This document shows positions 6,490 through 43,443 of a stretch of 43,443 nucleotides of DNA, one piece after another (positions within the stretch are counted from its first letter, which is position 1; each line of letters begins with the position of its first letter). The notes beneath the pieces were generated by a model that did not search any database, had not been told where the DNA came from, and saw nothing but the letters and a program-made list of their open reading frames with translations. The position numbers and the translations under genes were made by a program. The DNA lies in IMG/VR virus record IMGVR_UViG_2703718823_000009; one strand, 5' to 3'. Source of the DNA: a virus (lineage: Duplodnaviria; Heunggongvirae; Uroviricota; Caudoviricetes).

Positions 6490-8448
6490 TTACGCCGTAC
6501 ATTTCACCAGACCGCGGTGATCAACTGGCGCGACACCGGCGTCAATACGCACTTTCGTTGTCACGCCATCCACACTGAAGCCCTCCATCTGATCAATATA
6601 TGGCGTATCCACACCGTTGAGATAAGCCACTTCAATCGTATCGGAGCCTTTGGACGCAGCCAGGTAGAAGGTGGTCTGGCTGTTATCATCAAGACGAGGC
6701 TCTGCAATAACGGTCGCAAAATCTTTCACCGGGTTAATAATACCTGCGTTAATGTCAGCCCCCTTGACACTTGAGGAGCGAATGACCTGGTTAGCAACAG
6801 ACTCCATCGCCGTCGGTACCAGTACGAACGCAGGACGAATATTCAGATGACGCTCCCCCTCTTTCTGAACGCGCATCAACTGGCGGGCTTTATCCAGCGA
6901 TGCCACGTCCATTGCAGCGCTCTCCAGTACGTTTGCATGTTTCGCTTTATCGAACAGACTTACATTATCTGTGGAGATTTTCGGGTTAGACGTCAGAATG
7001 GCATAAACCAGATCGGCAATGGTGGATTTCGCCGCACGGCCCAGCTTCATCGGGACATCGGTCAGCATATTCAGATCATCATTGATAATGGCCTGACGGG
7101 TGATACTGAACAGCTCGCCATAGGTCGCCAGTGCAATAGTGGCCTGTTTATCTCCGGTGGTGACGTATTTATATTCCGCCCCTTCACGCACCTGACGCAG
7201 AGCACTGAAGCCCCCCATACCCACACGATGGGCAATTTTAAAATCAGACAACTGACCTTTCCGCGTCCACTGTTCATAGGTTTCAGGAGCATCTTCCCAG
7301 CCCTGCAGAATGGCTTTGTTCGCAACATCCAGCAGAATATTACCGAAGTCAGACGTACTGTGTGTGAACGCCGCACCGACCATCTGCATCGGGTTATAAC
7401 TGGAAACCCCAATACCCCGTTCAGTCAGTGACATACGGGCATATTCACGCAGGGTCATCCCGTTGTAGACATTATCACGTTCGGTTTTTTCAAATCCGGC
7501 ACGCGCCATCAGCGCCTGGCGGATCCCGTCCCCCACAAAATTACCGTTACCGGCATAAATATGAGCCGGGGTATTTTTATTGGATGGCGTGGACTCGCGC
7601 CCCATCTCGTTCAACAGCTTTTCGCGGGCCTGCTCCAGCGAACATTCAGGATCGGCAAGACACTGAGCCTGCAGAGTCTGATAACGCCCGCCAAACATGG
7701 CAAACAGATCATTAATACCGTTTACACGCGCTTTTTGCTCTGCCAGTACCTGCGCACGGATACTGTTTTCATCCACCACGGGTGCTGCTGCCTGCACTGG
7801 CGTCCGGGAGGCTGCAGGTTCATCATCCTGTACGCGTGGAGCACTGTTGCGTGGCGGAGTAATCATGTTTCGAATGGATTCCGGCATCTTTTTAAATTCC
7901 TCTGTACGTTTTGACTGAATACATGCCATTGCCTTAACGGCTGGCGTTACCTGATCAGCAAATCCATGTGCCAGACATTCGGCACCGGACATCCAGGTCT
8001 CATCCGCCAGCATGGCAGCAATTTCATCGGTGGTTTTCCCGGTTTTCTGTGCATAAGCGGGTAACAGAACCGCCTCAACTTTATCGAGCAGGTCGGCATA
8101 GGTGCGCATGTCCTCCGCATCACCGCCCGTAAAGCCAAATGGTTTATGAATCATCATGAAAGTGTTTTCCGGCATAATGACCGGGTTTCCCACCATCGCA
8201 ATGACCGACGCCATTGACGCCGCCACACCGTCGACATAAACGGTAATGGACGCACCATGTGTTTTCAGCGCATTAAAAATGGCGATGCCTTCAAAGACAT
8301 CGCCACCCGGTGAATTAATATGGAGATTAATGTGGGTGATATCGCCCAGTGCATTCAGATCACTGATAAACTGCTTCGCTGTAACACCCCAGAAACCAAT
8401 CTCGTCATAAATATAAATATCCGCGTCACTCTGGTGACCAGCCTGCAT
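6490..8448 (-). CDS. fused prohead protease (ClpP/S14-like) - scaffold - major capsid protein
   Basis: N-terminal ClpP-like region (...HINSPGGDVFEGIAIFNAL..., ...MMIHKP...) followed by a long capsid-like C-terminus; likely start MQAGHQ at 8448. Confidence 0.75.
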   Translation of the reverse strand: MQAGHQSDADIYIYDEIGFWGVTAKQFISDLNALGDITHINLHINSPGGDVFEGIAIFNALKTHGASITVYVDGVAASMASVIAMVGNPVIMPENTFMMIHKPFGFTGGDAEDMRTYADLLDKVEAVLLPAYAQKTGKTTDEIAAMLADETWMSGAECLAHGFADQVTPAVKAMACIQSKRTEEFKKMPESIRNMITPPRNSAPRVQDDEPAASRTPVQAAAPVVDENSIRAQVLAEQKARVNGINDLFAMFGGRYQTLQAQCLADPECSLEQAREKLLNEMGRESTPSNKNTPAHIYAGNGNFVGDGIRQALMARAGFEKTERDNVYNGMTLREYARMSLTERGIGVSSYNPMQMVGAAFTHSTSDFGNILLDVANKAILQGWEDAPETYEQWTRKGQLSDFKIAHRVGMGGFSALRQVREGAEYKYVTTGDKQATIALATYGELFSITRQAIINDDLNMLTDVPMKLGRAAKSTIADLVYAILTSNPKISTDNVSLFDKAKHANVLESAAMDVASLDKARQLMRVQKEGERHLNIRPAFVLVPTAMESVANQVIRSSSVKGADINAGIINPVKDFATVIAEPRLDDNSQTTFYLAASKGSDTIEVAYLNGVDTPYIDQMEGFSVDGVTTKVRIDAGVAPVDHRGLVKCTA

Positions 8449-8461
8449 CCTGAACCAGGAA

Positions 8462-9970
8462 TTATTCTTCGGACTGGTCGTCGGTGTGCTGCGGCTCCTG
8501 TCGTTTCGTTGCGGCACTGCTGCCTCCTTTATCACTGGCCGGATCGGTATCAAATACCAGATCCAGCTTGCGGTTTTCATCAATTTCGGCCTTGCGCCGA
8601 CGTTTGACATCATCCGGATTACGACCACCAGCACGTACCCAGTCTGATTCTGTCGCCGCTCCACCACGAATCTGGATTTTCCAGGCCTCAGCCTCCTTAA
8701 CAGGGTCAATCCACGGCATCACTGGTCCGGAATACACCGCGGTATACAGTGAAGAACGGTCAAGATCGCGGGGTAGCCTGATAACACCGGATGCCACAGC
8801 CTGTTTCAGCCAGGCACGATACATCGGGCGGGTGACGGCACCAATAAACCAGTCCTGCAGGATCAGGTAGCCATCAGTAGACTCAACCAGTTCCTGACGC
8901 TGGGCGCTGTAAGTGCCGTTATAGTTGCGTGCCGTACTGGAAAAACTCAGACGACTGCCCGCCGCCACGGCACGCAACTGACCATTACGAAAAGTTTCAA
9001 GGTTAGGATTGGGACGATCCGACTTCACCATTCCGATTTCTTCGCCGGGTTTCAGATCGTCGTAAATAATGCCTGGCTGAATGGTAAGCTCGCGTTCATT
9101 CTCCTTGCTGTCATTACCATCCGTTTCATAGCTCTGTCCGTCGCCTTTCCGGATGTACATCCCCAGAGCAGCGGCGATCCTTGCTGCAGTCAGCTCAGAA
9201 TCTTCATACTCTTTCAGGGCGCTGAGGCGGATCAGCACACCGGACAATAAAGACGTCCCGCGCATCTGGTGCAGACGGCGAACAAATTTAAGATGCAGCA
9301 TTCGCTCTGCATCCACTTCTTTGGTTTCCATCTGCCGTCCGGATACAGGACGACTTTTATACACCAGATATTTTTCGGGACGCCCCCAGTCATCAACAAA
9401 CACGCCCTGATTCAGCCTGTTGCTCTCATCACTGGTCATGGGAATAAAGTCCGGCTCGAGCGCCTCCAGCCAGAAATGAACACCGGCAGAAGGCGTCAGG
9501 CTGTTTATGCGCCCGGAAACCATCTGGGCAAACACCTCACCATCGCGCAGCCAGGTACGCAGCATCAGACGTTCCAGCATCGGACGGGTAAACTGCCCGG
9601 TGACTTCCGGACTGACAGACCATTCACTCCATCGGGTACGTATCTCCGCTGCCAGGTCACGGGCAATGGCACCATTGCGTAATACCGGATGTGGCTCGAC
9701 AATAATCCCGTTTTTCCCCACCACCCGTTCTTCCAGCTTGTCAAATACACCAATGACCAGATCGTGGTTGTTATCAAGGTAACGGGCCTGCTCACGTAAC
9801 GACACGGCCCCGTACTGGCTTAACTGGTCGGCAGTTCGGTTCTCCCGTCGGGCTTTGTGTGTCCGCGTCGTTTTTACGGCCTCATAAGCTTGGATCACCG
9901 CTCGGGAACGCAGCCTTGCCGCTTTCCATCCTGGTGAAAAAACGCCAATCACATCATCAAGAATTGCCAT
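8462..9970 (-). CDS. portal protein (lambda gpB-like)
   Basis: About 500-aa protein between W-like and capsid genes; ATG at 9970 overlaps the W-like stop (TGATG). Confidence 0.8.
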   Translation of the reverse strand: MAILDDVIGVFSPGWKAARLRSRAVIQAYEAVKTTRTHKARRENRTADQLSQYGAVSLREQARYLDNNHDLVIGVFDKLEERVVGKNGIIVEPHPVLRNGAIARDLAAEIRTRWSEWSVSPEVTGQFTRPMLERLMLRTWLRDGEVFAQMVSGRINSLTPSAGVHFWLEALEPDFIPMTSDESNRLNQGVFVDDWGRPEKYLVYKSRPVSGRQMETKEVDAERMLHLKFVRRLHQMRGTSLLSGVLIRLSALKEYEDSELTAARIAAALGMYIRKGDGQSYETDGNDSKENERELTIQPGIIYDDLKPGEEIGMVKSDRPNPNLETFRNGQLRAVAAGSRLSFSSTARNYNGTYSAQRQELVESTDGYLILQDWFIGAVTRPMYRAWLKQAVASGVIRLPRDLDRSSLYTAVYSGPVMPWIDPVKEAEAWKIQIRGGAATESDWVRAGGRNPDDVKRRRKAEIDENRKLDLVFDTDPASDKGGSSAATKRQEPQHTDDQSEE

Positions 9971-22415: not shown

Positions 22416-23081
22416 TCATTCCTGTCCTTCCTTACCGTAGTGCAGTTGACCAATTTTGATTAGAGGGCGTCCCTGAGATTTGCGGTGTAGATTGGTATCG
22501 CGCAGTGAATACACGCAGCCACAATATTCCTGCTGATAGAATTGTTCGCGCTTGCTGATTTCAATCATGCGGGAAGAGCCGCCCTGTTTTCGCCAGTTAT
22601 AATCCCAGTACACCATGCCCGGATAATGCGCGACGGCTCGCCGTCCACAGTCGTTAACCTGCTGCATATTTTTCCAGCGTGAAATGCCCAGTGAGCTACT
22701 GATCACACTGAAACCATTTTCAGCGGCATACAGTGCAGTCCGCTCAAAACGCATGTCAAAACACATGGTACAACGGATCCCTCGTTCAGGCTCCCATTCC
22801 ATTCCTTTGGCTCGCTCAAACCAGTTGTCTGTGTCGTAATCAGCATCAATAAATGGCACGCCGTGTTGTTTAGCAAAGCGAATATTCTCATCCTTACGAA
22901 TTAAATACTCTTTCTGAGGATGAATGTTCGGGTTGTAGAAAAAGATGGTGTAGTCGATTCCCGAGGCCTGAAGCGCCTCCATCACTTCACCGGAACATGG
23001 AGCACAGCAAGAGTGCAGTAATAGTTTTTTTGCCCCGTTTGGGAGCTCCAATTTGGGGCGTTTGAAATCAGCAACAGTCAT
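22416..23081 (-). CDS. QueH-like (DUF208) epoxyqueuosine reductase homolog
   Basis: Contains [13 protein letters not shown], matching the CCAPC motif of DUF208/QueH as recalled; start uncertain (ATG at 23081 or 23102), none with a strong RBS. Confidence 0.55.
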
Positions 23082-23134
23082 AAATGTGTTTATGAGGTTC
23101 ATGAAAATAGCAAAAAGTGTAGCATCAGAACGGG

Positions 23135-23437
23135 CTATCGGAAACAGATGTCTAAATCTGGTAATGTCTGCTTTTGATGCAAAGCAGACAACCACGGCAG
23201 CGCACGAAAATCAGCGATAATGTCGGGATTAATAATCGGGTGACGTCCATCACATAGCGAATGTTCCTCTTTCCTGATATCGCTAAATATCGACCATTCG
23301 TCATTCTTATCGAACCAGAGCATGCGACTGCCACAGCACATGTCGAGAATGGTAGCCGATGTACTCACAGCATCACCTCCCGATAATTCCCCTGATAAAA
23401 CGTCAGAACACGCTGCATAACTTCGCTCTTCCGGCAC
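23135..23437 (-). CDS. ORF of uncertain status (possible gene fragment)
   Basis: 100-aa frame with no RBS at any candidate start; overlaps the 3' end of the upstream 140-aa gene. Confidence 0.2.
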
Positions 23438-27872: not shown

Positions 27873-30344
27873 ATGAGTAAAGTCTTTATTTGCGCCGCTA
27901 TTCCTGACGAACTGGCAACAAGGGAAGAAGGCGCTGTGGCTGTAGCCACAGCCATTGAAGCTGGCGACGAACGCCGTGCTCGAGCAAAATTTCACTGGCA
28001 ATTCCTGGAACATTATCCGGCTGCTCAGGACTGCGCTTATAAATTTATTGTCTGCGAGGATAAACCTGGCATACCCCGCCCTGCCCTCGATTCATGGGAT
28101 GCTGAATATATGCAGGAAAACCGCTGGGATGAGGAGTCTGCTTCTTTTGTCCCGGTTGAGACTGAATCCGATCCGATGAACGTCACTTTTGACAAGCTGG
28201 CCCCTGAAGTACAGAACGCTGTCATGGTTAAGTTCGACACATGTGAAAACATCACCGTTGATATGGTTATTAGCGCACAGGAATTGTTGCAGGAAGACAT
28301 GGCAACATTCGACGGACATATCGTTGAAGCGTTGATGAAAATGCCAGAAGTTAACGCCATGTATCCGGAGCTTAAGTTGCACGCCATTGGGTGGGTTAAG
28401 CATAAATGTATTCCTGGTGCTAAATGGCCCGAAATTCAGGCAGAGATGCGCATCTGGAAAAAACGTCGCGAAGGTGAACGCAAGGAAACCGGAAAATACA
28501 CGTCTGTTGTTGATCTCGCCCGCGCCAGAGCCAATCAACAGTACACTGAAAATTCAACAGGAAAAATCAGCCCGGTCATTGCTGCCATTCATCGCGAATA
28601 CAAGCAGACATGGAAAACACTGGATGACGAACTGGCCTACGCTCTCTGGCCTGGTGATGTGGATGCCGGAAACATTGACGGCAGCATCCATCGCTGGGCA
28701 AAAAAAGAAGTTATCGACAACGACCGCGAAGACTGGAAGCGTATCTCGGCATCAATGCGCAAACAGCCTGATGCCCTTCGCTACGACCGCCAAACTATTT
28801 TTGGCCTTGTCCGTGAGCGTCCGATCGACATTCACAAAGATCCCGTAGCACTGAACAAATATATCTGCGAATACCTGACGACAAAGGGCGTGTTTGAGAA
28901 TGAAGAAACAGACCTGGGCACTGTTGATGTTCTCCAGTCATCAGAAACACAAACTGATGCAGTGGAAACTGAGGTATCTGATATCCCAAAAAATGAAACC
29001 GCGCCGGAAGCTGAACCATCTGTAGAGCGTGAGGGGCCGTTCTATTTCCTCTTCGCAGATAAGGACGGAGAAAAATACGGTCGCGCAAACAAACTTTCTG
29101 GTCTGGATAAGGCACTGGCTGCTGGCGCCACTGAAATCACAAAAGAAGAATATTTTGCCCGAAAAAATGGCACATACACGGGCTTACCGCAAAATGTAGA
29201 TACCGCTGAAGATTCAGAACAACCAGAGCCGATAAAAGTTACCGCTGACGAAGTAAACAAAATTATGCAGGCAGCCAATATCAGCCAGCCTGACGCCGAT
29301 AAGTTGCTTGCTGCATCACGTGGTGAATTTGTTGAAGGGATTAGTGACCCGAATGATCCGAAATGGGTTAAGGGGATCCAGACCCGCGATTCTGTGAACC
29401 AGAACCAGCATGAATCGGAACGGAACTACCAAAAAGCGGAACAAAACAGTCCAAATGCGTTACAAAACGAGCCAGAAACGAAACAGCCTGAACCAGTGGC
29501 GCAACAGGAAGTGGAAAAGGTCTGCACCGCCTGCGGTCAGACCGGCGGCGGCAACTGCCCTGATTGTGGCGCGGTGATGGGCGACGCAACATACCAAGAA
29601 ACATTCGATGAAGAGTATCAGGTTGAAGTTCAGGAAGATGATCCGGAGGAAATGGAAGGCGCTGAACATCCACACAAGGAGAACACTGGCGGCAATCAGC
29701 ATCACAATAGCGATAATGAAACTGGCGAGACGGCAGATCACCCAATTAAGGTGAACGGTCATCACGAAATCACATCCACCAGCAGGACGTGTGACCATCT
29801 AATGATCGACCTTGAAACCATGGGAAAAAATCCTGATGCCCCGATCATCTCAATAGGTGCAATATTTTTCGATCCGCAAACCGGAGATATGGGACCGGAA
29901 TTTAGTAAGACTATCGATCTGGAAACTGCTGGCGGAGTCATTGATCGGGACACCATTAAATGGTGGCTTAAGCAATCACGCGAAGCGCAATCTGCCATTA
30001 TGACCGATGAAATCCCGTTAGATGATGCACTGTTACAATTGCGGGAATTTATCGACGAAAACTCCGGTGAATTTTTTGTTCAGGTTTGGGGAAATGGAGC
30101 CAACTTCGACAACACGATTTTGCGCCGTTCATATGAACGGCAGGGGATCCCCTGCCCGTGGCGTTACTACAACGATCGCGATGTACGCACAATCGTTGAG
30201 CTGGGGAAAGCCATAGACTTCGATGCCAGAACGGCTATTCCATTCGAAGGTGAGCGCCATAATGCACTTGATGACGCCCGTTACCAGGCAAAATACGTTT
30301 CAGTTATCTGGCAAAAACTGATCCCGAGTCAGGCTGATTCTTAA
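27873..30344 (+). CDS. prophage exonuclease: YdfE-like N-terminal region fused to a DEDDh (DnaQ-like) 3'-5' exonuclease domain
   Basis: 823-aa uninterrupted ORF; C-terminus carries DLETMG, WGNGANFD and HNALDDARYQ motifs; ydfE position before xis-int. Confidence 0.7.
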   Translation: MSKVFICAAIPDELATREEGAVAVATAIEAGDERRARAKFHWQFLEHYPAAQDCAYKFIVCEDKPGIPRPALDSWDAEYMQENRWDEESASFVPVETESDPMNVTFDKLAPEVQNAVMVKFDTCENITVDMVISAQELLQEDMATFDGHIVEALMKMPEVNAMYPELKLHAIGWVKHKCIPGAKWPEIQAEMRIWKKRREGERKETGKYTSVVDLARARANQQYTENSTGKISPVIAAIHREYKQTWKTLDDELAYALWPGDVDAGNIDGSIHRWAKKEVIDNDREDWKRISASMRKQPDALRYDRQTIFGLVRERPIDIHKDPVALNKYICEYLTTKGVFENEETDLGTVDVLQSSETQTDAVETEVSDIPKNETAPEAEPSVEREGPFYFLFADKDGEKYGRANKLSGLDKALAAGATEITKEEYFARKNGTYTGLPQNVDTAEDSEQPEPIKVTADEVNKIMQAANISQPDADKLLAASRGEFVEGISDPNDPKWVKGIQTRDSVNQNQHESERNYQKAEQNSPNALQNEPETKQPEPVAQQEVEKVCTACGQTGGGNCPDCGAVMGDATYQETFDEEYQVEVQEDDPEEMEGAEHPHKENTGGNQHHNSDNETGETADHPIKVNGHHEITSTSRTCDHLMIDLETMGKNPDAPIISIGAIFFDPQTGDMGPEFSKTIDLETAGGVIDRDTIKWWLKQSREAQSAIMTDEIPLDDALLQLREFIDENSGEFFVQVWGNGANFDNTILRRSYERQGIPCPWRYYNDRDVRTIVELGKAIDFDARTAIPFEGERHNALDDARYQAKYVSVIWQKLIPSQADS

Positions 30345-37343: not shown

Positions 37344-38754
37344 ATGTCCAAAAATGACCGAATGGTGGGCATCAGCCGCAGAACACTCGTTAAATCAACC
37401 GCGATAGGTTCTCTGGCGCTGGCTGCAGGCGGTTTTTCTTTACCGTTCACCCTGCGCAGTGCAGCGGCAGCGGTACAACAGGCCAGCGAAAAAGTGATCT
37501 GGGGTGCCTGTTCCGTCAACTGTGGTAGCCGCTGTGCACTTCGTCTACATGTTAAAGATAATGAAGTCACCTGGGTGGAAACTGACAACACCGGCAGCGA
37601 CGAGTATGGCAATCATCAAGTACGCGCCTGTTTGCGTGGTCGATCCATCCGTCGGCGTATTAATCATCCCGATCGCTTGAATTACCCAATGAAACGCGTG
37701 GGCAAACGCGGCGAAGGCAAATTCGAACGGATTAGCTGGGATGAAGCCCTGGATACTATCGCCAGTAGCCTGAAGAAAACCGTCGAACAATATGGCAATG
37801 AGGCTGTATATATTCAGTACTCTTCGGGGATCGTTGGCGGCAATATGACCCGCTCTTCGCCATCAGCCTCGGCGGTCAAACGCCTGATGAACTGCTACGG
37901 CGGTTCACTCAATCAGTATGGCTCCTACAGCACCGCGCAAATTTCCTGTGCCATGCCCTACACCTACGGCAGTAATGATGGCAACAGCACCACGGATATT
38001 GAAAACAGCAAGCTGGTCGTGATGTTTGGTAACAACCCGGCAGAAACCCGCATGAGCGGCGGTGGCATCACTTATCTTCTTGAAAAAGCGCGCGAGAAAT
38101 CGAACGCCAAAATGATTGCTATCGATCCGCGATATACCGATACGGCTGCTGGTCGTGAAGATGAATGGCTCCCTATTCGCCCGGGCACCGATGCCGCGCT
38201 GGTTGCGGGTATTGCCTGGGTATTGATTAACGAAAATCTCGTTGATCAACCTTTTCTCGATAAATACTGCGTCGGCTATGACGAAAAAACCTTACCCGCA
38301 GATGCACCCAAAAATAGTCACTATAAAGCCTATATTCTTGGTGAAGGTGATGATAACACAGCGAAAACGCCGCAGTGGGCTTCGCAAATTACCGGTATCC
38401 CGGTAGACCGTATCATCAAACTGGCGCGTGAAATTGGCACAGCAAAACCCGCTTATATCTGCCAGGGCTGGGGGCCGCAACGCCAGGCAAACGGCGAACT
38501 GACTGCACGCGCTATTGCTATGTTACCTATTTTGACGGGCAATGTCGGCATCAGCGGCGGAAATAGTGGCGCGCGTGAATCGACCTATACCATTACCATA
38601 GAACGCCTGCCGGTGCTGGATAATCCGGTCAAAATGTCAATCTCCTGCTTCAGCTGGACAGATGCTATCGATCATGGTCCGCAAATGACGGCAATCCGCG
38701 ACGGCGTCCGCGGCAAAGATAAACTGGATGTGCCCATTAAGTTCATCTGGAACT
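37344..38754 (+). pseudogene. ynfE: ynfE (Tat-exported molybdoenzyme) truncated after about 470 codons by insertion of foreign DNA
   Basis: Twin-arginine signal MSKNDRMVGISRRTLVK and DmsA-like sequence through ...PIKFIWN; the frame then runs 15 unrelated codons into the insert to a stop at 38801; full-length YnfE is about 800 aa (recalled). Confidence 0.8.
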
Positions 38755-38810
38755 TCAAGGACTTGAAGCGGACCCTTAGTAGGTCTGAGGTCCTGCATTG
38801 AGTCAAGGAC

Positions 38811-38843
38811 TTTGTGTCAGGCTTTGTGTCAGCCTTGTGTCAT
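38811..38843. repeat. short tandem repeat TTTGTGTCAG(G/C)C x3 near the element terminus
   Basis: ACTTTGTGTCAGGC TTTGTGTCAGCC TTGTGTCATT read directly. Confidence 0.6.
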
Positions 38844-38995
38844 TAGACGGGATGTCTAGACGGCTGGTCAGGACCCCGGTGGCCTCGGTCTGGACTTGAG
38901 GCGGGGCTATGGGGGAGAAGTCTGCTGGCTTAATGTATTAGATGGTCATTCACATTTTTCTGTCAGAAACCATCGGTCCCACTGTGAGTCCAAAC

Positions 38996-39151
38996 CTAAG
39001 CCCCCAGAAGCCCACCCACAGCCTTAGACAGAGTGTCGAATACATTCACACCGAGTCGACCGGAGAGGACCATATAGAGACCCACAGAGAGGAGCACGAG
39101 TTTATAGACCAGAGTCAGGAGGGACCTTAGGTCTGCGGAAGTCATGGACAT
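38996..39151 (-). CDS. small hydrophobic protein (51 aa) with strong RBS
   Basis: GGAGG 4 nt before ATG; MSMTSADLRSLLTLVYKLVLLSVGLYMVLSGRLGVNVFDTLSKAVGGLLGA; below ORF-track cutoff. Confidence 0.3.
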   Translation of the reverse strand: MSMTSADLRSLLTLVYKLVLLSVGLYMVLSGRLGVNVFDTLSKAVGGLLGA

Positions 39152-39204
39152 AAAGCCTCCTTCGTCTATTGTACTACTGCACTAGATAACTAGTACAAAA
39201 CAAA

Positions 39205-39229
39205 GGTCCAGACCATTGGTCCAGACCAT
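39205..39229. repeat. tandem repeat GGTCCAGACCAT x2
   Basis: GGTCCAGACCATTGGTCCAGACCAT read directly. Confidence 0.6.
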
Positions 39230-39389
39230 AGTTATCATGATGATTGGAACGATTGAACGGTAGGCACTTTACGTCTCACCCACTGTTCAGCTTCAGCCAG
39301 TGACCAGCATAGCCGCTTATAGACTCTGCGTGTCATCCAGATTGTTGCTTGATATCGTCCACCCTCCACAGGCTGTATAGATGTCTTAA

Positions 39390-39629
39390 TCACAGTGACA
39401 GGCCACCACCTGAAGTCCTGCTGATATTCAGTCCAGACTTACCTCTGCTCATGGTCTTACCTCCCTCGGTCTCCTGACCTTGGGTATCGACTACAGCTTG
39501 CTGAGCGTCATCTGGAGGAGCTACAGGAGGAGCTACAGGAGGCGGGACCGAAGCCCCACCTTGAGTCCCACCACCACCTGTCAGGCCCTTGGCGATGGAC
39601 CTGAAGCCTTTACTAATGCTCTTACCCAT
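39390..39629 (-). CDS. Gly/Pro-rich small protein (79 aa), low complexity
   Basis: ORF with internal PPVAPPVAPP repeat from a 12-bp tandem DNA repeat; no clear RBS. Confidence 0.3.
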   Translation of the reverse strand: MGKSISKGFRSIAKGLTGGGGTQGGASVPPPVAPPVAPPDDAQQAVVDTQGQETEGGKTMSRGKSGLNISRTSGGGLSL

Positions 39630-39634
39630 TGGTC

Positions 39635-40621
39635 TTACGCTTCGGTCTTGGTGAACTTCAGGCGTTTGACTACAGGCAGGACGGCAGTAGCTGAGCCAGT
39701 GCCCATCTTGATGGTCGTAGCAGCTTCAGCGACAACGTACACTTTACCGAGGATTTCCAAGTCGTGGGACTGAGAGTCGCCATCACGTGAAAGGACGACC
39801 GTAATATTCTCGCCATCGTGACGGAAGCAACCGAAGCTCAGAGCCGTGAAGCGTTTAGCCAGCATGAATACACCCTTGTCTTCACCGTTGTAGTAGGCGA
39901 TGTCTGTTCCCAGCATATCGACGATAGCGTCTTCACCGGAGAAGCCTTGCTTAGCAGCCAGACGGGACAGTGCTTTCAGTTGGCTCTCATGAGCGATAAT
40001 ACCGTAGTTAGACACCTCAGAACCGAAAGAAGGCTCTGTGTTCTCATACAGAGCGTCCATGATAGCGTCTGCCTTAGCGGTCAGGCTACCAGTCAGGACA
40101 GGAAGCTCTACGGTCTTCAGCAGCTTAGAGGATTCCAGAACGTCGACCATGTGAGCGTTGATGGTACGGACCACATTCTCACAGATGTTCATAGCGTCCT
40201 GCTGAAGTGTGCCCTGAGTGAATCCGGTGGATGACTTGGCGTCCCAGAGAGTGGTCTGCTCAGAGATGAGAATAGCCTGCTCGATTGGTTCGACCACGAT
40301 TTCTTGTCCAGACGGAATGGTCACGACTTCAGGTCGCTTGCCACCACGGACAGGAACGACCACAGAGCGGTCAGCCAGAGTGTGGGCAATGATTGGGGTC
40401 GGTAAGCTGTTACGGGTCGGCAGGACTTCTACAGGGAACGGGATGTTCTCTTGAGCGTCCTTAAGTACACCGTTCAGCATAGCCTTAACCGTCTTAGCTA
40501 ACTGGAGGGCGTAGACCTGCGGGTCAGCGTTAGTCGGCAGACCTTCATTGACCTGAATGTTGTCGGTATCGGTGATGCGTACTGGCTCAATGCCAAACTG
40601 GAAAGCGTCTTTAATCGTCAT
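39635..40621 (-). CDS. hypothetical protein (328 aa), largest gene of the cassette
   Basis: ATG at 40621 with TAGGAGA RBS 9 nt upstream; no family recognised by eye. Confidence 0.55.
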   Translation of the reverse strand: MTIKDAFQFGIEPVRITDTDNIQVNEGLPTNADPQVYALQLAKTVKAMLNGVLKDAQENIPFPVEVLPTRNSLPTPIIAHTLADRSVVVPVRGGKRPEVVTIPSGQEIVVEPIEQAILISEQTTLWDAKSSTGFTQGTLQQDAMNICENVVRTINAHMVDVLESSKLLKTVELPVLTGSLTAKADAIMDALYENTEPSFGSEVSNYGIIAHESQLKALSRLAAKQGFSGEDAIVDMLGTDIAYYNGEDKGVFMLAKRFTALSFGCFRHDGENITVVLSRDGDSQSHDLEILGKVYVVAEAATTIKMGTGSATAVLPVVKRLKFTKTEA

Positions 40622-40705
40622 AATAATCAATCTCCTAAATTAGTTTAAATACTGTGAGTCCTCAAAACTGAGGAGTCCCTAACATCGGGTCAGGGACTGT
40701 GTGTC

Positions 40706-41197
40706 TTATAAGCTGTCCAGCCAGTTACCGCCTGACTCAAGGTCAGCGACAATAGCGGCACGGGAGCGACCAGCGGAATGGGTTGCACTGCGGAGGTTCT
40801 CACCATAGGTCCGGCGTTCAGCTTTGACTTGTTCGCGGCGCTGTAGCTCTTTCTGCCACTCTGCATCGGTCATGTTCTCTTCACGCATACGCTCTTTCTG
40901 AGATGCCAGCTCTTTAGCGATACGCTCAGCCTCAGCTCGTTTGTTAAGCTGGCGGCGACCATAGGCGGTCATCAGGTCATTACTGAAGAAGTTGCCAATA
41001 GCTACGCCAGCTTCAGCCAGAGCTTCCAGTAACTCCATTGCCTCGCGGCTGGTAGACGGCAGGCCTGACAGGTAGCCCGGAATGAGGGTCTTGATAGCGA
41101 GCGACAGCGGATAGGGCTGACCGTCCAGACTCACAGTGTTTTCATAAAGGTTGATGTCGGTGACTGACAGCTTCCAGTTGTTGTTGTTGAACATCAT
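40706..41197 (-). CDS. hypothetical protein (163 aa) with charged helical C-terminal half
   Basis: ATGATG start with AGAGGAG RBS; C-terminus ...AERIAKELASQKERMREENMTDAEWQKELQRREQVKAERR... Confidence 0.5.
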   Translation of the reverse strand: MMFNNNNWKLSVTDINLYENTVSLDGQPYPLSLAIKTLIPGYLSGLPSTSREAMELLEALAEAGVAIGNFFSNDLMTAYGRRQLNKRAEAERIAKELASQKERMREENMTDAEWQKELQRREQVKAERRTYGENLRSATHSAGRSRAAIVADLESGGNWLDSL

Positions 41198-41293
41198 AGG
41201 TAATTCTCCTCTTGAGAGTTGAGACTATCGGTATCGCAGACGCAGTAGCGCCTACGGGTCTCCCCGCATCGGTCATCTCAAAAGGTTTTAAAA

Positions 41294-41461
41294 TTAGGCA
41301 GACAGTTTCATAGCGACCAGTTGCGCTATCAGCTCGTCTCGGGATTGGTGCTGGCGGGTCTCATCTTCCGGGTCTAGACCAAGCTCTCTGAGGAGGACTT
41401 CAGTCCGGTAGCCACGGTAACGGAGAGTCATGCGGCCCTCAGGTGTGCGTGGGTCAATCAT
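41294..41461 (-). CDS. small translationally coupled ORF (55 aa)
   Basis: ATG 1 nt after the KilA-N gene stop, preceded by AAGGGAGG; MIDPRTPEGRMTLRYRGYRTEVLLRELGLDPEDETRQHQSRDELIAQLVAMKLSA. Confidence 0.3.
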   Translation of the reverse strand: MIDPRTPEGRMTLRYRGYRTEVLLRELGLDPEDETRQHQSRDELIAQLVAMKLSA

Positions 41462-41462
41462 C

Positions 41463-42221
41463 TTAGAGTCCTCCCTTAGCGCACAGACGAACCAGCTCGA
41501 CCTTGTTGGACTTAAGCCACTCGTAACCCTTGGTGAGGACCTTAAGCCCCTCCTGACCGTTATAGTGGTTATCCTGAAGACGGTAATAGCCGTTCTCCAG
41601 ACCCTTAGGATTGAAGCTGGTCATCCAGCCACCTGACGAGATGTCAAATACAGGCTGTCCTCGACCGTCCAGCTTGCGACTATAGAAGGGATTAGCTATA
41701 CGCCCTGACTTCAATACGGCATTAAGAGCCTTGGCTGATACCAGCTTTGTACCTAACCTGAAGTCGAGATTCTTAAGACACTCTGTCAGGGTGTGGCCCT
41801 GCTTCGGGTTATCCAGCTTTTCCAGCCAGTTACGGGCTATAGGCTTGAGACCCTTAAGTTCCTTGGAGTCCTGCGCCAGCGCCTTAGCTTCCGACACTTT
41901 GTCGTTACGTAAAGCGATGAAAGCACGGATGACCTTAAGGTAGAAATCAGGTGAGACCCACATCGCATAGGCAATAGCCGCCTCTTCAGTAGCCCATGTC
42001 CCCGGAGTCGAACCACCATGAGCAACATGCAAATTTGCATCTTGGTCAAGAAGCGTCCTGACGCTAGAACGCCACTGACCCGGCTCCTTAGCAGATGGAA
42101 GCTCAAGCTCTTTATGTAGCTCGTTCAGGTTCCACATACGGTCCTGATTACAGGCCCAGTGATAGCCGTCAACGATGACAGGAAGAACTACTTCATGCTT
42201 CATTAAGGGTTGAGTTGACAT
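41463..42221 (-). CDS. KilA-N domain protein (possible antirepressor/regulator)
   Basis: N-terminal ...GTWATEEAAIAYAMWVSPDFYLKVIRAF... matches the KilA-N signature as recalled; AAGGAG RBS 9 nt before ATG. Confidence 0.6.
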   Translation of the reverse strand: MSTQPLMKHEVVLPVIVDGYHWACNQDRMWNLNELHKELELPSAKEPGQWRSSVRTLLDQDANLHVAHGGSTPGTWATEEAAIAYAMWVSPDFYLKVIRAFIALRNDKVSEAKALAQDSKELKGLKPIARNWLEKLDNPKQGHTLTECLKNLDFRLGTKLVSAKALNAVLKSGRIANPFYSRKLDGRGQPVFDISSGGWMTSFNPKGLENGYYRLQDNHYNGQEGLKVLTKGYEWLKSNKVELVRLCAKGGL

Positions 42222-42568
42222 ATCGTTGTACTCCTTTTGTTATGCCTCCTGAAGTCACACCCTGAAAGCCTACTCAAGCCCCCAACGATAGGGAGACTCA
42301 CAGGCAACAGGAGACATACAGAAAGACTTGAGGTAATAAGGTCGTGTGAAGACCATGTTAACTTTTTCCTACTGGCTACTAGATAACTAGCGTGTCTCCA
42401 TATGTATAAAGGCGGGACCGCATGTCAGGACGAGCTGTAAGGACTTCCAGATGGTGAGCGGTGATAAACTTAAGCCAATGAGTAGTGAGTAGACGAGCTA
42501 CTAACAGATGACTGAAGAACGCTAACGAGCTGGAGGTCATACAGGAGGTCTGACAGAGGCGGAAGCAG

Positions 42569-42591
42569 GTCTCCTATAGTGATAGTTTAGG
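42569..42591 (-). promoter_or_regulatory. phage single-subunit RNAP promoter-like motif P2
   Basis: Minus strand CCTAAACTATCACTATA|GGAGAC (-17 to +6); compare SP6 ATTTAGGTGACACTATAGAAG and T7 TAATACGACTCACTATAGGGAGA. Confidence 0.5.
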
Positions 42592-42596
42592 GTCTG

Positions 42597-42619
42597 GTCC
42601 CCTATAGTGAGTGCTTATT
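42597..42619 (-). promoter_or_regulatory. phage single-subunit RNAP promoter-like motif P1
   Basis: Minus strand AATAAGCACTCACTATA|GGGGAC; positions -10 to +3 identical to T7 consensus (ACTCACTATAGGG), -11/-12 differ. Confidence 0.5.
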
Positions 42620-43082
42620 CCATCATCCCTTTATCACAGAGCACCTTCTTCATGTTCACAGAGGTAGCCTGAAGTACAGAGTTAACGTGGCGTAGGTAGC
42701 GAGGAGACGGGGAGCGACCCGTGATTGCCGTGTAGGAGATGTCAGTATTGCGGGAGAAGATATCGTTGGTGCCATATAAGGCAGCGAACAGGTAGGCCTT
42801 GGAGACCGGGAGTCCCACGCTGTTAGAGAGACCTGAAGGACGTGAGAGTCCTGTAAACACATCGTCTGCCCATGGGTAGGCCTCAGCAAGCTGCGTATAG
42901 GAGAGACACCCAGTCTCAATCAGCCACAGCCTCACAGACCGATTGTCGATGACCACAGGCGGCTTACCTGTACGGGCCTTAGGTTCATCATAGGTCGGCG
43001 CTGGTAGCTGCTCATGGTCGAGGTCTCCACCGAAGAAGGCCTCATTGTCGGACTCTGAGTAGCATTGAATTGTAATAGCCAT
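42615..43082 (-). CDS. hypothetical protein (155 aa), first gene of the minus-strand cassette
   Basis: ATG at 43082 with AGAGGAGG RBS 7 nt upstream; P3 motif 80 nt upstream. Confidence 0.5.
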   Translation of the reverse strand: MAITIQCYSESDNEAFFGGDLDHEQLPAPTYDEPKARTGKPPVVIDNRSVRLWLIETGCLSYTQLAEAYPWADDVFTGLSRPSGLSNSVGLPVSKAYLFAALYGTNDIFSRNTDISYTAITGRSPSPRYLRHVNSVLQATSVNMKKVLCDKGMME

Positions 43083-43156
43083 GGATGGGCCTCCTCTTAA
43101 GGTTGGCTACTTGCAGTGGGTAGCAGCGGTTTCGGTTAGATGGAGGACAGGCGTGT

Positions 43157-43179
43157 CTCTCCTAGGGTGATAGTTAAGG
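43157..43179 (-). promoter_or_regulatory. phage single-subunit RNAP promoter-like motif P3
   Basis: Minus strand CCTTAACTATCACCCTA|GGAGAG; shares an extended 28-bp match with P2. Confidence 0.4.
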
Positions 43180-43237
43180 GTCTGAGCCCAAACTTCCGAA
43201 GGTGAGGGATTATTGTAAGATACTGAAAGCTAATGGA

Positions 43238-43324
43238 AAGTTGGAGGGACCTGAGTTTAGGACGCAGTTTAAATAAGACACCAAGTTGGAGGACCTGAGT
43301 TTAGGGTGCAGTTTAAATAAGACC
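43238..43324. repeat. tandem direct repeat, 2 units of about 44 bp (iteron-like)
   Basis: AAGTTGGAGGGACCTGAGTTTAGGACGCAGTTTAAATAAGACACC followed by AAGTTGGAGGACCTGAGTTTAGGGTGCAGTTTAAATAAGACCAC. Confidence 0.7.
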
Positions 43325-43386
43325 ACAGACAGACTTAGAGTCGGACAGCCGAAGGCGAACCAGTGGGCCTATAGTCAGGAGGGATT

Positions 43387-43443
43387 ATGATTATTATCAC
43401 CCTCCATAACTTCAGTCGTAAGCGACTCGTCAGAACCGTATTG
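43387..43443 (+). CDS. start of a divergent plus-strand gene (partial)
   Basis: AGGAGGG RBS 3-4 nt before ATG at 43387; MIIITLHNFSRKRLVRTV... open to window end. Confidence 0.3.
   Translation, partial: MIIITLHNFSRKRLVRTVL

Follow-up and report, generated by a model that had tools for sequence, protein, structure and literature searches.

T7 and related phages rank among those studied best and used most, in molecular biology, in expression systems and, with K1F and K11, in phage therapy. Chung and Hinkle reportedly found in 1990 that plasmids bearing a T7 origin and a concatemer junction are replicated and packaged by T7. Among described satellites, the capsid-forming phage-inducible chromosomal islands (cf-PICIs) have temperate helpers of the siphovirus type; the phage-inducible chromosomal island-like element (PLE) of Vibrio cholerae is about three times larger than the island considered here, has its own replication initiator, remodels helper capsids and encodes no capsid protein; and the phage-inducible chromosomal minimalist islands, or PICMIs, have the core int-alpA-fis-primase. 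The cf-PICIs also encode a portal, a protease, a head-tail adaptor, an HNH endonuclease, terminases and an Stl-like regulator (PMC13230959). In PLE, the small DNA-binding protein CapR, which is related to Bro-N/KilA-N-associated domains, represses the helper capsid operon (PMC8096241); it shows that a satellite can direct a DNA-binding protein against the DNA of its helper. PICMIs, whose helpers are virulent marine phages, have no capsid-remodelling genes and a different mode of DNA packaging (PMC10803314). A full-text literature search, which left most subscription journals outside its coverage so that a prior description is possible, returned no description of a natural satellite of T7-like phages. 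Here we consider the gene kilA (41463..42221, minus strand) of the virus record IMGVR_UViG_2703718823_000009 from IMG/VR, a 43,443-nt stretch of the Escherichia coli chromosome referred to as the window, together with the island of about 6.6 kb in which this gene lies.

As a protein, KilA is a new member of the phage P1 KilA family and is ordinary in itself. It is the setting that stands out, namely promoters of the type used by the RNA polymerases (RNAPs) of T7-like phages, located in an integrated island of 6.6 kb that has the appearance of a so far undescribed satellite of those phages. The interpretation we favour, with a probability of about 0.6, is that KilA is an infection-induced DNA-binding core protein of a new family of satellites of T7-like phages.

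Phage-type promoters and genome-end-like sequences

Three promoter-like sites, which form one repeat family and are all on the minus strand, stand upstream of kilA. The K1F-type phage-RNAP promoter CAGACCCTAAACTATCACTATAGGAGA (42570..42596) is located about 350 nt 5′ of the gene; directly 5′ of it, a second tandem variant, AATAAGCACTCACTATAGGGGAC (42597..42619), resembles the T7 promoter core and overlaps the stop codon of a 155-amino-acid (aa) gene; and a further K1F-type variant, CAGACCCTTAACTATCACCCTAGGAGA, is located at 43158..43184. The CAGACCCTAAACTATCACTATAGGAGA site has 0 mismatches to a 19-nt core that occurs 11 times in the K1F-like Escherichia phage phiYIO1-1, each time on the plus (coding) strand. 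With up to 3 mismatches allowed, this core is found at 2 sites in the 43-kb window against 0.00 expected from shuffled sequences, and both sites lie inside the island and face kilA. The island sites thus have the features of T7-group promoters, that is, a site of about 23 bp with a CACTATAGG-type core whose phage copies lie on one strand. For the second tandem variant (AGCACTCACTATAGGG), no phage using the exact variant was found, the one match in IMG/VR being unrelated; in sibling E. coli islands, promoters of two specificities likewise stand in tandem.

Between the promoters and the kilA start, neither a sigma-70-like promoter nor a terminator-like hairpin was found on the minus strand. Since no host-type promoter was detected and phage-RNAP promoters lie about 200–350 nt upstream, kilA would be made only after infection. 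The original prediction, made from the window's letters, had placed kilA under putative phage-RNAP promoters and had suspected a link to a helper phage; the sites do match a K1F-like promoter in the right orientation upstream of kilA, and we regard the suspected link as supported.

Islands of about 6.4–6.6 kb with the same gene order were found in Klebsiella and Pseudomonas, at other insertion sites (the 3′ end of a tRNA gene and the 3′ end of nadB, respectively), and in Edwardsiella. The gene kilA is one of about five genes common to the islands of these three genera and E. coli, and the identity of KilA across genera is 35–50%. In Klebsiella, the island promoters are identical at 25–28 of 28 positions to the annotated K11 promoters phi9, phi10 and phi13, and those of Pseudomonas share the gh-1 core TTAAAAACCCTCAC, one copy being 32/34 identical, upstream flank included, to phi17, the rightmost gh-1 promoter. 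When 17 further loci were scanned, paired promoter-like repeats about 700 and 200 nt 5′ of kilA were also present in 11; the repeats of Pectobacterium and of one Pseudomonas locus belong to other T7/T3-like types. The strongest argument for functional promoters and for kilA expression tied to infection is that the promoters co-vary with the local phage.

The islands also contain sequences resembling phage genome ends. The stretch 38827..38918 (minus strand), which contains TCTCCCCCATAG, resembles the left end or concatemer-junction region of T7-like phages, where the left end of T7 itself reads TCTCACAGTGTACGGACCTAAAGTTCCCCCATAGG. A blastn search of 2.3 Gb of phage sequence gave E 1e-3, with named matches exclusively to T7-like phages of 38–40 kb; the counterparts are located at positions 306–393 in Pkp-1 and between gp19.5 and the early genes in BUCT788, and the similarity score was reached by none of 200 shuffles. 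In Pseudomonas, a stretch of the island agrees with the gh-1 terminal repeat at 22/24 positions, and the same CCCCCATAGGCCC motif is located near the distal end of the island.

A motif like that of the concatemer junction, CCCTATCTGT, is found on the sense strand inside the integrase gene int in 5 of the 6 islands scanned and on the antisense strand in none (0/6). The Edwardsiella island has no copy, and CT29, an island discussed below, has a second sense-strand copy with one mismatch. The Klebsiella motif of this type is identical at 19/19 positions to the annotated K11 concatemer junction and the Pseudomonas motif shares TATCTGTAAGT with gh-1; the E. coli site falls past the window end. The genome-end-like stretch and the junction-like motif are statistically supported as homology, with a putative function as packaging signals. 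An excised circle or concatemer would bring the end-like stretch, the attachment (att) site and the junction-like motif together.

Several further features of the promoter region should be noted. The 155-aa open reading frame (ORF) between the two promoter sites (42615..43082, minus strand) occupies a variable slot: it has no family match in Pfam, PHROGs, NCBIfam or PADLOC, and the matching stretch is non-coding in the Pseudomonas and Klebsiella islands. Two 33-nt direct repeats (43247..43323, no strand), 94% identical and spaced by 44 nt, lie 5′ of the first promoter. A T7-type origin, composed of a promoter and an AT-rich stretch, was considered upstream of the E. coli kilA and set aside, the GC content of 43–50% not being distinctive; the idea survives for Pseudomonas only, where an AT-rich stretch lies between the two promoters. 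On the plus strand, the 37 nt at 43370–43406 are 97% identical to positions 40046–40081 of phiYIO1-1, between its rightmost promoter and its gp19.5-like gene. This stretch, oriented opposite to the island operon, contains a strong Shine–Dalgarno sequence and the ATG (43388) of a short ORF that leaves the window and is convergent with int.

Organization of the island and its surroundings

The window opens with a lambdoid prophage (1 to about 31983), followed by the host genes rspB to ynfD and by ynfE, which is broken at about 38754; from this point to the window end extend the left two-thirds of the island. Its left boundary within ynfE is the att core CATCTGGAACT (38744..38754, no strand), and in UMNK88 this 11-bp core is a direct repeat at both island ends. 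In UMNK88, the far end of the island consists of a gene for a 540-aa tyrosine integrase, after which ynfE resumes with its second half, the gene being annotated as two fragments on either side of the island. All island genes point in one direction, in the order int, promoter, 155-aa ORF, tandem promoters, leader, kilA, a 55-aa ORF, and the genes for 163-, 328- and 79-aa proteins; two small ORFs, about 250 nt of non-coding DNA and att follow the last of these.

The 328-aa protein (39635..40621, minus strand) looks like a capsid protein of the HK97 fold, an assignment for which the predicted fold alone gave a signal. In a Foldseek search of the Protein Data Bank (PDB), its AlphaFold2 model gave 171 matches at E ≤ 1e-3, the top 50 of which were all encapsulins or phage major capsid proteins. 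At the sequence level, no match was found in Pfam, PHROGs, NCBIfam or PADLOC, by phmmer against the PDB, or by tblastn among 50,697 phage records; the family consists of 70 representative clusters and has no sequence relatives outside them. The 79-aa protein (39390..39629, minus strand) is a homologue of T7 gp7.3, a virion protein of "host range and adsorption", with a full-length match to phrog_1320 (E 1.8e-11) and a match to "Protein 7.3" of PDB entry 9jyz (E 0.0037). The core protein of 163 aa (40706..41197, minus strand) is a distant relative of DUF6971, homologous to a 136-aa Klebsiella protein of that family (Pfam E 1.4e-35) and to a 138-aa Pseudomonas protein; its position suggests a scaffold-like role.

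In keeping with the general description of a satellite, the element combines a tyrosine integrase, an 11-bp att core and a size of 6.6 kb, and most virion, replication and packaging genes were not found in it. We read it as a satellite because it has its own capsid-like protein, a gp7.3 homologue, a tyrosine integrase, and mimics of a genome end and a concatemer junction. According to this model, kilA would be silent until a T7-like phage infects the cell and supplies its single-subunit RNAP. KilA would then bind DNA in a sequence-specific way and either start the island programme or restrain the helper, and helper functions would replicate the island and enclose it in shells made from the island's own capsid-like protein, so that a small satellite would make use of the transcription, replication, packaging and tail machinery of the helper.

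Two small ORFs complete the left part of the island. The GTG start of a 52-aa basic ORF (39235..39393, minus strand) overlaps the stop codon of the gp7.3-like gene. A 51-aa hydrophobic ORF (38996..39151, minus strand) has a strong Shine–Dalgarno sequence, is preceded by a hairpin with a T-run (39205–39227), and was also called as a gene on contig L019. Neither these two nor the 55-aa ORF gave a family match in profile searches, and Rfam gave no match in 38700–43443. Three tandem TGACACAARGYC units adjoin the att core (38808–38843, minus strand) and may be arm-type sites of the integrase.

The sibling islands differ in their accessory content. In Klebsiella (L010, 6358–6996) and in E. coli CRE10 (L022, 6824–7483), the anti-T7 gene PD-T7-4/RAZR (PADLOC E 6e-95) overlaps the integrase gene. 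PD-T7-4 has been said to "often overlap" an integrase gene (PMC9519451), which is exactly the arrangement in these sibling islands. In the window, the stretch from int to the first promoter holds no gene of a known family, the only short ORF being the one that opens at 43388. In the Edwardsiella island, an AT-rich unit of 117 bp is repeated eight times in tandem in the interval from int to kilA (L012, 6483–7400). A 27-nt repeat, TGGGCGTAGCTATACGCTACTGGTCAC, is present there in four copies, of which two form a tandem about 340 nt 5′ of kilA.

The island often assembles as a standalone piece of its own size, as in L019 (Logan, 6661 bp), L020 (NCBI draft, 6601 bp), L032 (6428 bp) and L028 (5970 bp). 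Contig L019 begins and ends at the att core, and in many homologue clusters the longest contigs are of 5.9–6.8 kb. Standalone contigs of 6.6 kb would fit excision, but they could also result from multi-copy islands or from assembly effects, and we therefore set them aside as evidence for excision.

The prophage at the start of the window (1–31983) is of the Qin/DicB type and encodes a fused ClpP-protease/capsid protein (6490–8709), a homologue of the epoxyqueuosine reductase QueH (22416–23195) and an 823-aa protein with a C-terminal 3′–5′ exoribonuclease domain (27873–30344). Its segment 12775–15819 contains only two ORFs of at least 90 aa (141 and 90 aa).

The KilA protein, its leader and the exchange with Rha

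The kilA ORF starts with ATG, with AAGGAG located 9 nt 5′ of the start codon, and encodes 252 aa. The N-terminal KilA-N domain named in the original prediction is borne out by a match to Pfam PF04383 above the cut-off (E 1.3e-9, 38.3 bits, cut-off 23.8, residues 26–104), the peptide GTWATEEAAIAYAMWVSPDFYLKVIRAF occupying residues 74–101, and Pfam matched KilA-N in all 34 aligned homologues. KilA also matches PHROG 129 "transcriptional regulator" (E 1.5e-17) and PHROG 63 "anti-repressor Ant" (E 1.5e-6) and, weakly, the PADLOC defence candidate PDC-S22 (E 6e-7).

The C-terminal part of about 150 aa had been called unrecognised, a description that has to be given up. Among 34 full-length homologues, five match Pfam ANT/KilAC (PF03374) and two of the five exceed its curated cut-off, the best being P0053 (E 1.4e-6, 29.1 bits, cut-off 25.3, residues 119–213). 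The KilA family profile aligns with P1 KilA across both domains (hhalign probability 98.5%, E 3.6e-15, residues 21–253 of 266), and in tblastn the N-terminal domain is 35% identical to that of P1 KilA over residues 11–123. A match of the C-terminal domain to a well-characterised family had been named as a ground for rejection; KilAC is indeed a named family but is biochemically poorly characterised, so that this objection holds in letter only. The coupling of the 55-aa ORF to the kilA stop, also proposed, agrees with the TAA-G-ATG junction and a GGGAGGA Shine–Dalgarno sequence.

The domain layout is thus KilA-N at about 14–104, a long helix at 91–123 and a KilAC/ANT-like winged-helix C-terminal domain at about 130–250. 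The AlphaFold model (mean predicted local distance difference test score, pLDDT, 80) has two folded domains with the long helix between them; its fold matches are weak but consistent in theme, to the APSES domains of Mbp1/PCG2 and to winged helices of the MerR/GlnR/excisionase type, and sequence profiles detected no solved structure of any KilA relative. Judged by sequence, KilA is a complete KilA-N + KilAC protein whose C-terminal half is a divergent KilAC/ANT domain, and both modules resemble DNA-binding domains. When about 5.8 billion proteins were searched, homologues containing both halves came from E. coli, Enterobacter, Pectobacterium, Kluyvera, Klebsiella, Yersinia, Serratia, Edwardsiella and many Pseudomonas. 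Within the gene, the palindrome ATGCAAATTTGCAT (window 42019–42048; L003 at about 8170) encodes a conserved DANLH motif; the E. coli and Pseudomonas genes both have it.

The 55-aa ORF (41294..41461, minus strand) starts 1 base past the kilA stop, and its Shine–Dalgarno sequence lies 6 nt 5′ of the ATG. Its homologue is a 79-aa Klebsiella ORF in the same position, to which it is 52% identical over 31 aa (E 6e-7, small database), and the 55-aa ORF persists even in islands where kilA is replaced.

Upstream of kilA, a conserved leader of about 110 nt (42227..42337, minus strand) forms a long imperfect hairpin and ends just 5′ of the kilA Shine–Dalgarno sequence. Its nucleotide identity is about 82–85% among the E. 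coli KilA-type, E. coli Rha-type and Klebsiella islands, the following genes being far less conserved. The predicted hairpin has 33 pairs, 3 of them with compensatory changes, and a single-sequence z-score of −1.9; the leader may serve for RNase III-type processing or for the control of translation. The transcribed leader also contains the 15-nt inverted repeat GGTCTTCACACGACC (42340..42354, minus strand), the only motif that emerged from a search for KilA-specific sequences in the E. coli and Klebsiella upstream regions. The KilA-type islands of E. coli and Klebsiella have it in identical form, and the two Rha-type islands have GGTCATCGCAGACC in its place; as a KilA operator it is a candidate and a lead only. 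In phage phiYIO1-1 (L002, positions 12150 and 4792, minus strand), two copies of GGTCTTCACACGACC with 2 mismatches were noted post hoc, against about 0.08 expected.

Of 5426 complete E. coli genomes, 22 have kilA at a coverage of at least 80%. Roughly 55 others carry the 55-aa ORF at 93–95% identity, with a Rha-family gene standing where kilA would be; this gene matches Phage_pRha and, weakly, ANT (Rha + KilAC-like). The CT29 island occupies the same ynfE site, its integrase is 91% and its morphogenesis module 90% identical, and the exchange extends from within a few bases of the start codon to the stop codon. Because the swap is clean and the surroundings are shared, we take kilA and the Rha gene for alternative alleles of one function with different N-terminal DNA-binding domains. 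Since islands with shared att and end sequences swap kilA for Rha, a role as an excisionase or as a binder of packaging sites is disfavoured. The target of KilA would most likely lie in the co-swapped control region nearby (a promoter, leader or origin-like stretch) or on helper DNA, and is unlikely to be the shared att or packaging sequences. Some island copies are interrupted by insertion sequence (IS) elements or are frameshifted.

Competing explanations and comparison with known systems

A more specific version of the satellite model, for which we would put the chances a little short of even, takes KilA or its Rha alternative for the infection-triggered DNA-binding switch of an undescribed class of capsid-encoding satellites of about 6.5 kb that depend on virulent T7-like phages in Enterobacteria and Pseudomonas. 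Such satellites would sense the helper through promoters for its own RNAP, sometimes with two specificities in tandem, would assemble a terminal-repeat mimic across attP only after excision, and would ferry anti-T7 genes (PD-T7-4/RAZR).

Several points weigh against a satellite with KilA as its infection-induced DNA binder. Promoter use, excision, replication, packaging and DNA binding by KilA are all inferred, with nothing experimental behind them. When IMG/VR was scanned for kilA, all matches were prophage calls made on isolate genomes and the island turned up in no virome record; profile searches found no portal, terminase, tail or polymerase genes in it. The model of the 328-aa protein is of low confidence (pLDDT 54; predicted template modelling score, pTM, 0.55), and hhalign found nothing in a comparison with T7-type capsid proteins. 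KilA itself has no match to Pfam ANT/KilAC at E ≤ 0.05, the co-variation of the candidate operator with regulator type is based on 2 versus 2 islands only, and the E. coli leader, with 43–50% GC, is not AT-rich.

The lack of portal, terminase and virome evidence would also suit a defence (abortive-infection) element, in which infection would be sensed through the promoters, the capsid-like and gp7.3-like proteins would be decoys that poison helper assembly, and KilA would be a toxic effector. The annotation of P1 KilA as a product that "can kill host", the PD-T7-4/RAZR gene in sibling islands and the weak match to PDC-S22 point in the same direction; however, pure defence would not need an integrase with a defined att, a constant size of 6.4–6.6 kb across genera, or mimics of a genome end and a junction, and we consider this explanation unlikely. 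Still less probable is that KilA is the island excisionase, or recombination directionality factor, made on infection to turn a constitutively available integrase towards excision, as kilA and Rha are cleanly swapped among islands that share integrase and att.

An antirepressor role, in which KilA would inactivate the repressor of a resident prophage or of the helper, had been suggested by the original prediction and would fit the PHROG 63 match, the KilAC domain, which takes its name from antirepressors, and the lambdoid prophage 7 kb away in the window. To our knowledge, however, T7-like phages have no repressors, and searches of Pfam, PHROGs, NCBIfam and PADLOC detected no repressor-like or helix-turn-helix gene in the island; transcription appears to be tied to a phage polymerase and not to the lifting of a repressor, and kilA is conserved at unrelated chromosomal sites and in Pseudomonas, independently of neighbouring prophages. 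We regard this role as very improbable. The rarity of the island (kilA in 22 of 5426 complete E. coli genomes) and its IS-interrupted or frameshifted copies could also indicate a decayed remnant of a T7-like or other prophage, with kilA a leftover that has no current role. Such decay is hard to reconcile with a gene order and size that recur in at least four genera, with intact ORFs, with a KilA identity of 35–50% across genera and with promoters updated to the phages of each host, and we give it next to no weight.

If the satellite interpretation is true, the island would represent a satellite reduced to a few core genes, kilA among them, that senses its helper by promoter mimicry, its promoters tracking the phages of each host. 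It would provide a natural context for the anti-T7 gene PD-T7-4/RAZR, and the outcome of phage therapy with T7-like phages would be affected in strains that carry it. For KilA-N/KilAC proteins, obscure in their function since P1 KilA, it would also be a system that is small, open to genetics and equipped with a clear on-switch.

The closest protein counterpart is P1 KilA, the founding KilA-N member, whose known function is limited to host killing. It shares the two-domain KilA-N + KilAC architecture over its full length, and both genes are first in an operon that is on only in lytic development, as would be the case for the island. They differ in that P1 kilA has a sigma-70 promoter under the C1 repressor and precedes repL/oriL, whereas the island kilA has phage-RNAP promoters and no rep gene after it.

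Among satellites, cf-PICIs resemble the island in being integrated elements with their own HK97-fold capsid protein, which is here a predicted fold, and in presumably borrowing the helper tail. Unlike them, the island has the capsid-like protein only, with no match to portal, protease, connectors, TerS/TerL/HNH or an AlpA/Stl-type regulator, and its helpers would be virulent T7-like podophages, with induction through the helper RNAP. PLE, the ICP1 satellite, is likewise a satellite of a virulent phage and also protects the host population; it differs, as generally described, in size and gene content, and CapR may be a counterpart of KilA in its role. The PICMIs share small size, an integrase and virulent helpers with the island (PMC10803314), which differs in having a capsid-like gene and no matches to alpA, fis or primase. 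The island is therefore outside the definitions of both cf-PICIs and PICMIs. With the transducing plasmids of T7 it has in common natural counterparts of the promoter-type and concatemer-junction cis elements; those plasmids are laboratory constructs, whereas the island occurs in nature as an integrative element and has capsid-like and virion genes of its own.

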